This document shows, piece after piece, positions 27,111 through 34,270 of a DNA stretch of 64,000 nucleotides. The notes under the pieces are model-generated. The model saw nothing but the letters and a program-made list of their open reading frames with translations, had not been told where the DNA came from and did not search any database. The stretch is from Oscillospiraceae bacterium (GTDB taxonomy: Bacteria; Bacillota; Clostridia; Oscillospirales; Ruminococcaceae): contig JALFVE010000005.1 in assembly GCA_022787085.1 (NCBI GenBank), positions 12,142 to 76,141 of the forward strand, given 5' to 3'. Both the position numbers and the translations under genes were made by a program. Positions within the stretch are counted from its first letter, which is position 1, and every line of letters begins with the position of its first letter.

Positions 27111-28373
27111 TTATTCATATCTCAAAGCCTCGATGGGATCGAGCTTTGCAGCACGGTTTGCGGGATAGTAGCCGAAGAATACTCCTATCGCCATGGAGAA
27201 GCCCACCGCAAGCACAATGGAGCCGATGGTGGGAGGTGCTGTGGTTCCCACTATAAGTCCTGCAATGTTTCCGAGGAGGACTCCAAAAAGGATTCCGATC
27301 ACTCCGCCGATAAGGCAGATGATGATGGATTCCACGATAAACTGCATCCTGATCGCAGAATTTGGGGCACCCATTGCCTTTCTGACGCCGATCTCCCTGG
27401 TTCTCTCGGTAACGGACACAAGCATAATGTTCATTACGCCGATTCCGCCTACAAGCAGGGAAATTCCCGCAATTACGGAGATCGCAAGCTGGAGCATACC
27501 GAGAACCTGATCTATCATATCCATCTGGGACTGAGCTGTCATATACATTATTTCGATGGAGTCATTGTCACGGTAATAGCTGTTGTTTAAGTAGTCTCTG
27601 ACCTCAGCAGAGAATCGGTCTGCGTCAACTCCTGTTTTGGTATTGACATAGAAATAGTAGAAGGTGTCGTCATTTACGCCCTGAAAACGGTTGAAAGTGG
27701 TGTAGGGCATATATATCTCGCTGTTCCAGTCATCACCCATCATATTTACCATTGCAGACATTATTCCCGAAAGCTGATACTTATATACGCCTACAATGGT
27801 GAGGTCGATCATGCTGCCGTCGTTCATTGTCAGGGCGATGGTCTTGCCTATGGCGCCTCTTTCCGAGCCGAATATTTTACTTGCCTGCTTATCGGAAATA
27901 ACTGCTGTACTGCGGAACTGCTCACAATCCTTGTCGGATATGTAGCGCCCTGCGATCACCTTTGTCATACTCTGTTTAATGTATCCGGGGTTTACTCCGT
28001 AAAGGCTGATATCATATTCCTTGCGGCGGATATTCATTTTTCCCGAATTGCTATCGGTGTTCAGCGCCACAGCATCTATATCGTCAGCAAATTTCTGCTC
28101 TATGTCCTTTATCATTTCAGCGGTGATGAAGTCCTCGTTCATAATATAGTCACGCTGAGCGTCGTCCTTCATATTAAGCTGAAATGCAACCAGATTTGCT
28201 CCGCCCTGGGAATTGAATATATCCATAACGCTGTTTTCCATAATGCTTCCCAGGGTGCTGATGGCAATTACCGAGCCGATTCCGATTATGATTCCGAGCA
28301 TTGTAAGAAATGCTCGCATCTTATTGGAGCGAAGTCCCGAGATAGCAAGCATTACATTTTCAAAAAATCCCAT
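27111..28373 (-). CDS. MacB/YknZ-like ABC permease
   Basis: [55 protein letters not shown]. Confidence 0.95.
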
Positions 28374-29161
28374 TACGCTTCGCCCTCCTCTCGGGTGAGA
28401 CTGCGGTTCCCCGTATCTCCGATAATATTGCCGTCAGAGATGGTGATTATCCTGTCGGTCTCGGCGGCAAGCTCGTTGTTATGGGTGATAAGCACGATTG
28501 TCTTGCCCTGCTCCTTGTGGAGCTTGTGGAAAAGATCCATAACAAGCCGTCCCGTTTTACTGTCAAGGGCTCCCGTCGGCTCATCCGCAAGGATGATGGC
28601 AGGATCGTTTGCCATGGCTCTCGCAATGGCGATTCGCTGCTTCTGACCGCCCGAAAGCTCATTGGGCATATGCCCTGCACGGTCGGACATCTCAACTATC
28701 TCCAGCAGCTCCTTTGCCCTTTCCCTGCGCTGCTTTGCGGGGATACCGCCGTAGAGCATGGGAAGCTCGATATTTTTAAGAGCGGAGGTCCTGGCGATAA
28801 GGTTAAAGGTCTGGAATACAAAGCCTATCTGCTTGTTTCTGATGGCAGAAAGCTCCTTGTCGTTTGCTCTCGATACATCGGTGCCGTCAAGGAAATAGCT
28901 GCCCGAGGTGGGTCTGTCAAGAGCGCCGATGATATTCATAAGTGTGGATTTTCCCGAGCCTGACTGTCCCACGATGGAGACAAATTCGCCCTTTGGAACA
29001 TTGAAGGTCATGCCGTGAAGTATCTCCAGCTCATTGGGCGTGCCCAGATAGAAGCTCTTTACGATATCCTTGGCGCAGATAACGTATTTTGATGCCTCCT
29101 CGGGAACGACATTGCTCTGAGCCTTGTACGAGTAGGTGGGCGGTGTGATATTCTTTTTCAT
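28373..29161 (-). CDS. LolD/YknY-like ABC ATP-binding protein
   Basis: [28 protein letters not shown]; likely start ATG 29161. Confidence 0.95.
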
Positions 29162-29174
29162 GGAGACACCCCCA

Positions 29175-31106
29175 TTACTCAGCCGCAGCTGCGCCCTGAA
29201 CAGCTTCTCCCAGCGCACTGCTGATGATTACAAGTCCGCCGTCTGTAATGTCTCCCGCATTGGAGATAAGCTCCATGCCCTCTGTAAGCTCGTCGGAGGA
29301 TATCTCTATCTCGGCATCGCTCTCAAAGCCTGTATCTACCTTTATCCTGCGGGCAGTGGCGGTGCCGTTTCCTTTTTCGATCATATCGGCTGTGTAAACA
29401 TAGCTCTGACCGTCCTCATCCTCAACGATGGAATCATAGGTTACGGCAAATACATTCTCTGCGCTGCCTGTTACAGCGGTGCATTTTGCTGTCATGCCTA
29501 TAAGAACGCCGCTGTCCTTGGTGTTTCTGATAAGCACCTCCACCTCAAAGGAGGACGAACCGTCGCTCTTGCCGTTCGCTGCCTTGACGCCTGTGGGTGC
29601 TATGCTGCTGATAACACCTTCAAACTCCGCATTGTTAAGGGAGGGAATAGTTACCGTTACCTTCATATCGGGTTTAAGTGAGCTTACGTTATACTCCTTT
29701 ACAGATGCCTTCATCTGGAGATTTTCAAGATCCTCGATGATGAAGAGCACGCCCGATGCGGGAGAGCCCTCTACTGCATACACGGCTGTTACGGTGCCGT
29801 CGCAGGGTGCCTTGATAACGCAGTCATCAAGCTTTCCTTTAAGTATCTCAAGGTTTATCACCTGTGAATCATTTGTGGAAAGCACCTTTTCTCTGTCTGC
29901 CTGCGCCTTGAGTGTGGCAAGAGTGGATTCAGCATTTCTGCGGGCAAGCTCATAGCTTTCTCTTGCGGTGTCAACAGCGGTCTGAGCATCGTCCACAGCC
30001 TCCTTGTAGCTCTTGATGGAGGTATCGTTGCCGTCCTCGATGGACTTGAGAGTGTTCTTGGCATTCTCATAGCTTACCTTTGCCCTCTCGTAATTGCGCT
30101 CTGCATTCTTCAGTGCAATGGAATTTGCGGAATCAATGTCTGCTTTTGCCTTTGTATATGCCTCGAGAGCGTCCTCGTAAACGTCCTCGGTGGTCTTTAC
30201 ATCATATTTCTTCTCAAGCTCCGAAAGCTTGCTCTTTGCCTCGGTAAGCTCCTGCTGAGCCGCTGTCACAGAGCTTTGATCCACATATGCCGCATTGTAC
30301 TCAAGCATTGAGGAGAGATATGTATAATTGGAAAGAGCAGTCTCATAAGCTTCTCTTGCCTTTCGAAGCTCCTCGCTCTTGATGGAGCTGTAACGGGTGT
30401 TATACTCCTTCTTTGCGTCATCATAGGCCTCCTTTAAGGACTTGATATCGCTGTAATCCTCGTTTTCCTTGTCGTCCTTCGCCTCAAGATAATCAGCCTC
30501 TGCGCAGTCAAGCTCGTACTTTGCGGACTCAACGCCCTTCTGTGCGCTTATAAGCTGGCTGTCACGGTCGCTGCCCTGGATATCAAGCTGCTCGTTATAT
30601 TTATCCTGCGCCTTTCTGAGAGCCTCCTCCGCATTGTCAAGAGAAAGCTTGGCATTTCTTATCTCGGGATATGAGCCGTCGCTTATCTGAGCGAGAGCGT
30701 CATTGTAATTCTTTTCGGCGGTGGTGAGAGAATATTCCGTATTGGCATTGGTGCTGTCAATATTGCTCTGCTGCTGGAGTATCTGATCCTGAATATCGCT
30801 GGAATCGAGGATAGCGAGAACATCGCCCTCCTTTACCTTGTCGCCCACCTCAACATTAAGGTCAGAAACATTGTAGCCCTGCAGCTTGGAGCTTACCTGA
30901 GTGAAGCTCTGGCTTTCCACAAGTCCGCTGACGGAAACCTTGTTTTCAATATTTTTTCTCTCAAGTGTGAACACATCGGACATTGTCATGCCCGACATCA
31001 TGGATGCACTGCTTACCATCATGAAAATAAATGCTCCGATGAGGGCAAGCACGGCGATCAGAATAATGATCTTGACCTTTGAGCCCTTTTTCTTTTCCTT
31101 ACTCAT
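29175..31106 (-). CDS. Efflux membrane-fusion (YknX/MacA-like) subunit with very long helical insert
   Basis: N-terminal TM, VEVGDKVKEGDVLA and IKAPCDGTVT lipoyl halves separated by ~340 aa of heptad-rich helix. Confidence 0.88.
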   Translation of the reverse strand: MSKEKKKGSKVKIIILIAVLALIGAFIFMMVSSASMMSGMTMSDVFTLERKNIENKVSVSGLVESQSFTQVSSKLQGYNVSDLNVEVGDKVKEGDVLAILDSSDIQDQILQQQSNIDSTNANTEYSLTTAEKNYNDALAQISDGSYPEIRNAKLSLDNAEEALRKAQDKYNEQLDIQGSDRDSQLISAQKGVESAKYELDCAEADYLEAKDDKENEDYSDIKSLKEAYDDAKKEYNTRYSSIKSEELRKAREAYETALSNYTYLSSMLEYNAAYVDQSSVTAAQQELTEAKSKLSELEKKYDVKTTEDVYEDALEAYTKAKADIDSANSIALKNAERNYERAKVSYENAKNTLKSIEDGNDTSIKSYKEAVDDAQTAVDTARESYELARRNAESTLATLKAQADREKVLSTNDSQVINLEILKGKLDDCVIKAPCDGTVTAVYAVEGSPASGVLFIIEDLENLQMKASVKEYNVSSLKPDMKVTVTIPSLNNAEFEGVISSIAPTGVKAANGKSDGSSSFEVEVLIRNTKDSGVLIGMTAKCTAVTGSAENVFAVTYDSIVEDEDGQSYVYTADMIEKGNGTATARRIKVDTGFESDAEIEISSDELTEGMELISNAGDITDGGLVIISSALGEAVQGAAAAE

Positions 31107-31112
31107 AACACG

Positions 31113-31493
31113 TTACTTTCCTTTCTTGCTGCTGTCATTAAGCTTATCGGAAATGAAGCCCAAAGCCTCATTTTCCGAATACCCCAGCCGATTCATAGCG
31201 CCGAGAAAATCGAAAACGACCTTATCCGCAAGCTCCTCTCTCAGCTCGGCGATCCTTTGGGGATCGTCGGTGATAAAGCGCCCCGATGTTCTGCGGGTGT
31301 AAACTATTCCCCGATTTTCAAGCTCGGTGAGCGCCTTCTGCATCGTGTTGGGATTTACATTTGCCTGAGCGGCAAATTCCCGCACGGACGAAAGCTTGTC
31401 ACCAGGGGATAACTGCCCCGAAGCGATCATCTGCTCAAGCTGATTCACGACCTGAAGATATATGGGGGTATCGGGTGTAAATACCCAATGCAT
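31113..31493 (-). CDS. GntR family (YtrA subfamily) regulator
   Basis: PIYLQV, LSSVREFA, VNPNTMQKA, RTSGRF. Confidence 0.92.
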   Translation of the reverse strand: MHWVFTPDTPIYLQVVNQLEQMIASGQLSPGDKLSSVREFAAQANVNPNTMQKALTELENRGIVYTRRTSGRFITDDPQRIAELREELADKVVFDFLGAMNRLGYSENEALGFISDKLNDSSKKGK

Positions 31494-32861: not shown

Positions 32862-32994
32862 TATCATTTTTTCTCTTCGTAACAAGCGCATACAATCGGG
32901 ATCCCAAGCTCAACAAGCTGTGTGGTTTATGCATCTCACGAAAAAAATTGCTGTTTACTGACAAATTTATTCCGTTGACATTATAAGACATATC

Positions 32995-33023
32995 TTGAAA
33001 ATATAAATAAACTGTGCTATAAT
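32995..33023 (+). promoter_or_regulatory. SigA promoter of the Rpn gene
   Basis: TTGAAA (32995-33000), 17 bp, TGnTATAAT (33018-33023). Confidence 0.8.
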
Positions 33024-33053
33024 GAAGATAATAAATCGAAAGGAGCCGAACCG

Positions 33054-33899
33054 ATGCCAAGAGATGTAATATCCGCAAAGCTGGACATAATATTCAAAAA
33101 GCTGTTTACCGAGAACGAAGATATGCTTTATTCCTTTGTGGCAAGTATGCTTGATATTCCTCAGGAAAGCATTTCCGAGATAAAAATCACCAATCCCGAG
33201 CTGCCTCCGGAAACTCTGTCCGGGAAATTCAGCCGTCTTGATCTGAGCCTTAAAGTGGATAATCGCCTTGTTAACGTTGAAATTCAGGTCAAGAATGACA
33301 ATGATTACCGTGACAGAACGCTTTTCTACTGGGCAAAGCTATATTCATCCGAGCTAAAAAGCGGCGAGGACTACAGCGAACTGAAACAGACCATTACCAT
33401 AAATATCATCAATTTCAATATGTTTGAAGGCAGCGATTATCACACCGAGATCGCGGCAATTATCAAGGGAACGGACGAGATCTTTTCCGACAAATTCAGT
33501 ATTCATTTCTTTGAACTGAAAAAGGTCGGAAAAAAGCCCGATCCCCATAATCGCCGGGAATTGTGGCTGCAATTTATTAATGCTGACAGTGAGGAGGATT
33601 TTGAGATGATCAGTCAGACAAATGTTCCTATTATGCAGAAGGCTGTGAATGTGATCTACGATATGTCCGAGGACACAAGAATTAGAGAAATTGCCCGCCT
33701 GCGGGAAAAGGCTCTTCACGATGAGGCTTCTGCTCTTAAAAATGCTAAGGCTGAGGGAAGAGCCGAGGGAAGAGCCGAGGGCAAAGCCGAAGGAAGAGCC
33801 GAAGGAAGAGCCGAAGAGCGAAATGCAGCTATTAAGAAAATGAAGTCATTAGGCTTTACCGATGAACAGATCAAGGCAATTTATCCCGATTTGGTGTAA
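33054..33899 (+). CDS. Rpn family recombination-promoting nuclease / PD-(D/E)XK putative transposase
   Basis: DIIFKKLF, RLDL...VNVEIQ, RTLFYWAKLY, TITINIINF, HFFELKK, WLQFI, EGRAEG tail. Confidence 0.93.
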   Translation: MPRDVISAKLDIIFKKLFTENEDMLYSFVASMLDIPQESISEIKITNPELPPETLSGKFSRLDLSLKVDNRLVNVEIQVKNDNDYRDRTLFYWAKLYSSELKSGEDYSELKQTITINIINFNMFEGSDYHTEIAAIIKGTDEIFSDKFSIHFFELKKVGKKPDPHNRRELWLQFINADSEEDFEMISQTNVPIMQKAVNVIYDMSEDTRIREIARLREKALHDEASALKNAKAEGRAEGRAEGKAEGRAEGRAEERNAAIKKMKSLGFTDEQIKAIYPDLV

Positions 33900-33902
33900 G
33901 TT

Positions 33903-34124
33903 ATGTATAATGTTATTTACGATAATTCAGAAGAAACAAGAATTAGAGAAATTGCCCGCCTGCGGGAAAAGGCTCTTCACGATGAGGCTTCTGCTCTTAA
34001 AAATGCTAAGGCTGAGGGAAGAGCCGAGGGAAGAGCCGAAGAGCGAAATGCAGCTATTAAGAAAATGAAGTCATTAGGCTTTACCGATGAACAGATCAAG
34101 GAAATTTATCCCGATTTGGTGTAA
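33903..34124 (+). CDS. Stand-alone copy of the Rpn C-terminal domain (RpnS-like, 73 aa)
   Basis: ATG 3 nt after the Rpn stop; MYNVIYDNSEETRIREIARLREKALHDEAS...IYPDLV. Confidence 0.7.
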   Translation: MYNVIYDNSEETRIREIARLREKALHDEASALKNAKAEGRAEGRAEERNAAIKKMKSLGFTDEQIKEIYPDLV

Positions 34125-34127
34125 GTT

Positions 34128-34221
34128 TTATATAATATACGATAATTCAGAAGAAACAAAAATTAGAGAAATTGCCCGACTGCGGGAAAGGGCTCCGCAT
34201 AATCAAGCTTCCGAATATTAA
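34128..34221 (+). pseudogene. Degenerate third Rpn C-terminal copy
   Basis: IYDNSEETKIREIARLRERAPHNQASEY*, no start codon. Confidence 0.75.
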
Positions 34222-34228
34222 TAAAAAA

Positions 34229-34270
34229 ATCGGCTTCGGCAGCCATTCCTGCCGAAGCCGATCATTTTTT
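34229..34270. terminator. Bidirectional terminator between the Rpn array and the surface-protein gene
   Basis: ATCGGCTTCGGCAG/CTGCCGAAGCCGAT with A-run before and T-run after. Confidence 0.85.

Follow-up and report, generated by a model that had tools for sequence, protein, structure and literature searches.

The 64,000-nucleotide (nt) stretch of DNA analysed here, referred to as the window, belongs to an Oscillospiraceae bacterium (assembly GCA_022787085.1, contig JALFVE010000005.1, positions 12,142 to 76,141 of the forward strand) and carries an Rpn-family nuclease gene whose C-terminal part is repeated twice directly downstream, once as an intact open reading frame (ORF) of 73 amino acids (aa) and once as a decayed remnant. 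The locus is best read as a toxin/antitoxin module of the RpnL-RpnS-RpnSs type in a gut Oscillospiraceae or Ruminococcus-like bacterium, in which RpnL would be the full-length nuclease, RpnS its tail produced from an internal start, and RpnSs the product of the separate downstream gene. The arrangement is an old two-gene module with a dead third copy, homogenised by gene conversion and carrying repeat arrays which slip independently. We assign this reading a probability of about 80%.

The nuclease gene, rpnL (33054-33899, plus strand), is preceded by the Shine-Dalgarno (SD) sequence AAGGAG at 33040-33045 and encodes a PD-(D/E)XK protein of 281 aa. This protein matches PF12784 (PDDEXK_2) with an E-value of 9e-52 and 176.5 bits (cut-off 27.4) over profile positions 2-229 of 229, and the NCBIfam model TIGR01784, 'Rpn family recombination-promoting nuclease/putative transposase', with an E-value of 2e-44 and 152.4 bits (cut-off 52.1), residues 10-276 being aligned to profile positions 2-262. 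Residues D63, E76 and Q78 of the nuclease core (RLD...VEIQ), the candidate catalytic residues, are at least 95% conserved among 65 full-length homologues.

A direct-repeat search and a MAFFT alignment place three copies of the tail module at the locus, all on the plus strand: copy 1 at about 33642-33899, forming the end of rpnL, copy 2 at 33903-34124, and copy 3 at about 34125-34211. Copy 2 is the 73-aa ORF, rpnSs, the ATG of which lies 3 nt past the TAA stop codon of rpnL (33897-33899) and in the same frame (TAA GTT ATG). From 33939 on, a single substitution (C33877 versus A34102, Ala to Glu) and a 36-nt gap set it apart from copy 1; the gap corresponds to three units of a 12-nt repeat, GAGGGAAGAGCC, encoding AEGR. 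Tandem Repeats Finder counts 5.2 copies of this unit in copy 1 (33753-33814, encoding AEGR and AEGK units) and 2.2 in copy 2 (34014-34039). The 36 nt at the 5' end of copy 2, its junction, are identical to copy 3 at 30/36 positions and to copy 1 at 23/36. Copy 3 lacks a start codon, has a 5-nt deletion and a shifted frame, and its resemblance to the other copies ends after about 29 codons. The 73-aa ORF itself matches positions 199-263 of TIGR01784 (E 1.4e-7, 31.6 bits). A preliminary description of this DNA, made from its letters and ORFs, agrees with these results on the Rpn identity of the nuclease, on the double recurrence of its tail, on an intact 73-aa ORF 3 nt past the stop whose body equals copy 1 but for one substitution and the repeat count, and on a junction resembling decayed copy 3 instead of copy 1; its view of the ORF as a free-standing, RpnS-like C-terminal module is supported. 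An ORF of 44 aa at 34087-34221 was dropped as a gene, since it arises simply from reading through copy 3 out of frame. It was also observed that read-through of the stop codon between the two in-frame genes of the window would give a protein with tandem tails, and that at another locus (L048:980-2326) an rpn gene and two 81-aa downstream genes lie in one frame, each gap consisting of a single stop and one codon before the ATG.

Within rpnL, a feature absent from the preliminary description points to a second product. The sequence GAGGAGGA (33592-33599), which contains GGAGG, lies about 6-7 nt before an in-frame ATG at 33606-33608 (Met185). The motif (G/A)AGGAGG occurs about 7-8 nt before the same conserved methionine in all 25 distinct homologous genes from relatives, and the two glutamate codons which form the SD are GAG in 55/55 cases, while GAG makes up 55% elsewhere in the same 30 genes, a comparison that carries no formal probability as the genes are related. 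At the protein level, E180, E181 and M185 are at least 95% conserved among the 65 full-length homologues. The conserved internal SD and ATG therefore predict a 97-aa RpnS (33606-33899), in line with the RpnS proteins published for Escherichia coli and Clostridioides difficile; it matches TIGR01784 at positions 186-262 with an E-value of 1.4e-7. An internal ribosome-binding site (RBS) with an in-frame start for a separate tail protein is thus predicted from sequence. As evidence for an internal RpnS promoter, a promoter-like sequence at 33583-33610 was dropped, since it has only 9/12 consensus matches and its -10 element overlaps the internal ATG.

The age of the module can be judged from a second locus, L036, reached via P0004, a small homologue of the 73-aa ORF. 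L036 is a contig of the Oscillospiraceae metagenome-assembled genome (MAG) GCA_017829005.1, and the same sequence is present in an ENA metagenome scaffold; the two are records of a related organism and may share read data. The order in L036 is an rpn gene (289 aa), a 3-nt gap, an 85-aa ORF starting MFNVIYDNSEDT, a decayed third copy and a terminator. Its context, between a DUF4830 gene and a histidine-kinase gene, is unlike that of the window, where a lipoprotein-like gene flanks the module on one side and a surface-protein gene on the other. Alignment of the two modules extends from the -35 box into copy 3 and no further, at about 86% identity, and copy 2 of L036 has the same junction type as copy 2 of the window (M-F/Y-N-V-I-Y-D-N-S-E). 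Since this type of copy 2 junction occurs together with a decayed copy 3 at an unrelated site, both are ancestral.

Different parts of the module are related in different ways. The junctions are identical at 32/36 positions between the copies 1 of the two genomes and at 29/36 between the copies 2, against 23/36 and 27/36 for copy 1 versus copy 2 within a genome. The body segments are identical at 30/30, 45/45 and 86/87 positions within the window and at 24/30, 39/45 and 70/87 between genomes; the body of the 73-aa ORF is 70-81% identical to the orthologous copy of L036 and closest to its own upstream tail. Junctions thus group by position and bodies by genome, a pattern of concerted evolution in an old two-gene module. 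The near-identical bodies within each genome indicate gene conversion, the tract of which begins directly past the junction. Copy 3 serves as an internal control for neutral decay: in both lineages it is without a start codon, out of frame and much shortened, whereas copy 2 has remained intact. Between the window and L036, the copy 2 junction differs at 7/36 nt with only 2 amino-acid changes. The intact, unconverted start and junction of copy 2, set against the decayed copy 3, argue for selection on copy 2.

Pairs of this kind are common among relatives. In the genus of the window bacterium, a tail ORF follows immediately after at least 7 more rpn genes. A protein search with the 73-aa ORF returned 385 small homologues (40-128 aa, E <= 1e-3) from Oscillospiraceae and Ruminococcus MAGs, all without a Pfam domain and annotated as 'hypothetical protein'. 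Their start position is conserved (M-x-K/N-V/F-I-Y-D), and the four which were looked up all lie 2-5 nt after a PF12784 gene or a truncated remnant of one. Among loci from species-representative genomes, 24/79 have an rpn gene paired with a free-standing copy. The same layout is also found in the two records of the L036 organism. At four loci (L048, L049, L086 and L115), two intact small genes follow the rpn gene.

Other states of the tail were noted along the way. At L038:2720-2830 and L040:2717-2790, a third, truncated tail copy (MVKFIYDTSEETRIKEIKL, followed by a stop) ends exactly at the AAGGAG RBS of the DUF6440 gene that follows, and L043 represents the same DUF6440 locus without this remnant. 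In L040-L042 (2091-2716, the GH95/GH130 locus), the upstream rpn gene is cut to a product of 134-138 aa without the nuclease domain and the 71-aa downstream gene is retained. At L039:1623-2725 lies a very divergent PDDEXK_2 gene (291 aa) whose N-terminal sequence is unrelated. From a point within the 12-nt array up to the end of the contig, the sequence agrees with L038 at 98.3% identity, and the tail and an identical downstream gene of 72 aa fall within this stretch, which is either a recombination graft at the repeats or a metagenome assembly chimera. In L034, a run of N at about 2250-2345 masks the end of the upstream rpn gene. The source genome of the window, a 56-contig draft, holds a second full rpn paralogue (C2:61874-62731), 86% identical, with 8 repeat units and without a downstream copy, a third (C39:63752-64035) which is cut by the contig end and has a tail spacer as long as that of the 73-aa ORF, and an rpn remnant with an internal deletion (C16:28889-29051). 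No exact copy of the 281-aa or 73-aa protein was found elsewhere by protein-to-contig search.

The repeat arrays set the two copies apart. Helix length was measured in both copies of 20 modules as the distance from the HDEA motif to the G-F/M-S/T motif. The upstream and downstream values differ in 19 of them, in each case by a multiple of 4 residues, with the downstream copy being the shorter one in 15 modules and the longer one in 4; in 1 module the two are equal. At the GH95-rpn-rpnSs-DUF6440-GH130 locus of four related genomes, the upstream helix spans 37, 49, 37 and 25 residues, and the downstream one is constant at 29. RpnSs may therefore usually not be cognate to the RpnL which precedes it, a possibility raised by these length comparisons together with the E. 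coli RpnC experiment, and neutral repeat slippage without selection could yield the same picture. The preliminary description suggested that the locus may tune antitoxin dose or hold spare C-termini; copy 2 may or may not add to such a dose, being three units shorter than its partner, when a mismatch of one unit abolished inhibition in E. coli. A rather doubtful further suggestion is that RpnSs acts as a stable reference or donor cassette, or as a cross-neutraliser of other Rpn variants, with conversion and slippage, and with AEGR-coding repeats serving as portable crossover sites (compare the L039 graft), so that toxin-antitoxin specificity is diversified. If true, the module would be a built-in system for such diversification.

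A mechanism can be proposed for the RpnL-RpnS-RpnSs module along these lines. A single promoter would drive a transcript ending at the hairpin at 34229-34262, from which three products would be made. RpnL, the full 281-aa nuclease, would be a toxic, DNA-cutting defence protein with a putative role against phages. RpnS, initiated at Met185 by the GGAGG, 7-nt, ATG arrangement, would consist of the tail alone and, by construction, would be matched in length to RpnL; if it acts as in E. coli, it would use the long helix that holds the repeats to attach to the RpnL tail and so inhibit the nuclease. RpnSs has a weak SD (GGTG), so its translation would probably occur by termination-reinitiation coupling. 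Gene conversion keeps the downstream body nearly identical to the upstream tail, and the 12-nt arrays slip independently, so that the copies differ by three 4-aa units.

Several results weigh against this interpretation. The SD of the 73-aa ORF is poor, and the helix of its product is 12 residues shorter than that of its RpnL partner; in E. coli RpnC, one extra repeat in only one of the partners abolished inhibition (PMC10400941). The AlphaFold2 model of the 73-aa protein is of moderate confidence (predicted local distance difference test 71, predicted template modelling score 0.37) and shows one long helix, spanning residues 10-57 and holding the repeats, and a short one, without a compact three-helix bundle. 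Neither a PDB sequence-profile search nor Foldseek matched the C-terminal module to the RpnA-S structure 7TH0 (best Foldseek E-value 2.4, insignificant), a Pfam scan at E <= 1 gave no PF14261/DUF4351 match for the 73-aa ORF or the 65 family members, and hhalign of the tail with RpnE-S/YpaA reached a probability of only 38%, over the repeat and an M-x-x-x-G-F-x-x-E/D-Q-I/V motif. The surroundings are not those of a defence island: no defence neighbours were found by Pfam in the ten adjacent proteins, the domains of which are of housekeeping, transport and surface-protein types and include an ABC exporter, a GntR regulator, a surface protein and a MiaB-like enzyme, and PADLOC 2.0 matched none of the three proteins scanned (Rpn, the 73-aa ORF and the upstream lipoprotein-like ORF).

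These points bear on the alternatives in different ways. The helix mismatch, seen in 19/20 modules as well as in E. coli rpnE/ypaA, together with the loss of inhibition upon a one-unit mismatch in RpnC, would suit a 73-aa protein that adds no dose of the cognate antitoxin and is deliberately non-cognate, either as a reserve cassette by which recombination could replace the RpnL/RpnS tail or as a neutraliser of other Rpn proteins, for example paralogues or incoming elements. Such a role is also hinted at by the C39 paralogue, in which KNAK and the following conserved block are 12 residues apart as in the 73-aa ORF, by the different terminal tails of the downstream copies in L049, and by L039, in which a divergent rpn is joined within the repeat array to the L038 tail and rpnSs. 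However, slippage alone would make most arrays differ without any selection, the repeat sequence of C39 is unlike that of the 73-aa ORF, and L039 could be an assembly chimera; we hold this explanation to be unlikely, if worth entertaining. It is improbable, in turn, that the ORF is a non-functional by-product of tandem duplication, kept intact merely by conversion from the upstream tail. With a body that shares 99% identity with copy 1, the ORF could stay open even if not itself under selection, the SD is weak and ypaA is annotated as a pseudogene in K-12, but the start codon and junction lie outside the converted tract and are nevertheless conserved with L036, with mostly synonymous differences. 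Moreover, copy 3, which was not converted, has decayed in each of the two lineages, many lineages share the start position and the gap of 2-5 nt after the upstream stop, and the E. coli counterpart is translated (PMC10400941).

The preliminary description had favoured a recent event, an unequal crossover of copy 1 with an older copy 3, as the origin of the free-standing gene in an array now expanding like an accordion. Recombination between copies does explain the mosaic of copy 2, whose junction is like copy 3 and whose body is like copy 1. The gene was not, however, newly made here: L036 has the same junction type and a decayed copy 3 in another context, so that the three-part state predates the split of the two modules (about 86% identical) and copy 2 is ancestral. 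Expansion likewise finds a counterpart in relatives, where L048, L049, L086 and L115 hold two intact downstream copies and L038 a recent, near-identical partial third one, but the array is not expanding in this lineage; a recent origin thus has very little probability. As to a collapsed or mis-joined repeat in the MAG, the draft state of the assembly, in 56 contigs with C39 ending inside an rpn paralogue, would make one conceivable. Yet the copies differ in junction, repeat number and decay, and hence are not a duplicated read path, and the same layout is present in separately deposited assembly records of relatives, which makes an artefact scarcely credible.

A SigA-type promoter on the plus strand (32995-33023; TTGAAA, a 17-nt spacer, TGcTATAAT) has 11/12 consensus matches and a TG-extended -10 element, so the strong promoter claimed beforehand holds as a sequence pattern. 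In several relatives, homology with the rpn modules of other species begins at about 32993-32994, at the -35 box, and the sequence upstream is not shared, so that gene and promoter move together. Neither inverted repeats nor target duplications were observed there, and no genus relatives sharing the flanks of the window rpn were found. A bidirectional intrinsic-terminator hairpin at 34229-34262, recognised as an inverted repeat with 14-15 base pairs in its stem, including 9 G-C pairs, and with a run of T on each strand, closes both the rpn module and the convergent surface-protein gene. Just upstream of the module, the minus strand holds an apparent operon (27111-31493) for a GntR regulator, an HlyD-like adaptor (643 aa, with a long coiled-coil insert), an ATP-binding cassette (ABC) ATPase and a MacB/FtsX permease.

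The locus leaves the known picture of Rpn function unchanged, and its added value lies in the prevalence among Oscillospiraceae, in the concerted evolution and in the rule of repeat mismatch. The arrangement published for E. coli is extended to PDDEXK_2-type Rpn genes of gut and rumen Oscillospiraceae, in which it is common, and hundreds of small 'hypothetical' proteins gain a name. The module also offers a clean natural example of concerted evolution between the tail of a gene and a free-standing copy of it. Furthermore, it brings forward a question left by the E. coli work, namely whether a repeat-mismatched downstream copy can neutralise its own nuclease.

The reference for such systems is the study of Zhong et al. 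(2023, PNAS; PMC10400941), which describes RpnL proteins as toxic nucleases that are bound and blocked by RpnS, a product of an internal start demonstrated experimentally for the rpn genes of E. coli and for one from C. difficile. According to the same study, the long first helix of the Rpn tail contains 4-aa repeats in varying number, and small downstream homologues, termed RpnSs, are present as ypaA after rpnE and rpnCSs after rpnC, with translation established for RpnESs; these copies arose independently, each from its own upstream gene, and may disappear again, either through deletion or by becoming fused to the N-terminal region of rpn (PMC10400941). No binding or toxicity data for any RpnSs were found in the text read of PMC10400941. 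Downstream RpnSs genes were thus already published, which the preliminary description did not take into account, and the locus of the window belongs to this known arrangement.

Direct comparison with K-12 shows ypaA 12 nt after rpnE, 75% identical to the RpnE tail and with one extra 4-aa unit. The likeness to rpnE-ypaA and rpnC-rpnCSs consists in a nuclease gene with an internal tail start, followed within a few nt by a separate small tail gene. As in the window, the small copy of rpnE-ypaA is closest to its own upstream gene and differs from it by whole 4-aa units (one more in ypaA, three fewer in the window). Both nucleases match almost the whole of TIGR01784, RpnE with 172.4 bits, and the C-terminal section of this model is matched by both small proteins, YpaA at positions 220-271 with an E-value of 1.7e-7 and 31.4 bits, nearly equal to the 73-aa ORF. 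The D...E-H-Q pattern of RpnE resembles RLD...VEIQ in the window protein. The N-terminal domains, however, belong to PF12784 (PDDEXK_2) in the window and to PF04754 (YhgA-like) in E. coli, and BLASTP found no pairwise similarity between the window Rpn and RpnE, so that their link rests on the shared NCBIfam profile. Unlike the window ORF, with its weak SD and 3-nt gap, ypaA has a strong SD of its own (AAGGAGA) and a 12-nt gap. The window differs further in its third, dead copy and in a module which is demonstrably old and evolves in concert.

The C. difficile Rpn/RpnS pair, likened here by description and not by sequence, resembles the window module in being a Firmicutes Rpn, the internal RBS and start of which give a small C-terminal protein in E. 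coli, and in its 4-aa repeat variation; it differs in that the available parts of the paper describe no downstream copy for it (PMC10400941). Stand-alone, RpnS-like small genes of the DUF4351 family (PF14261) are noted there as well (PMC10400941). They share with the present genes the encoding of an Rpn tail by a small separate gene, and differ in family, as the Oscillospiraceae small proteins have neither a PF14261 match nor a Pfam model. A further parallel is offered by the orphan C-terminal toxin/immunity arrays of Rhs and CdiA, in which spare tandem copies of a variable C-terminal module lie downstream and are exchangeable by recombination. There, the orphan copies are without the 5' part and code for toxin tips accompanied by immunity genes, whereas the Rpn copies are complete small antitoxin-like domains, and their remnant is without its 3' part.

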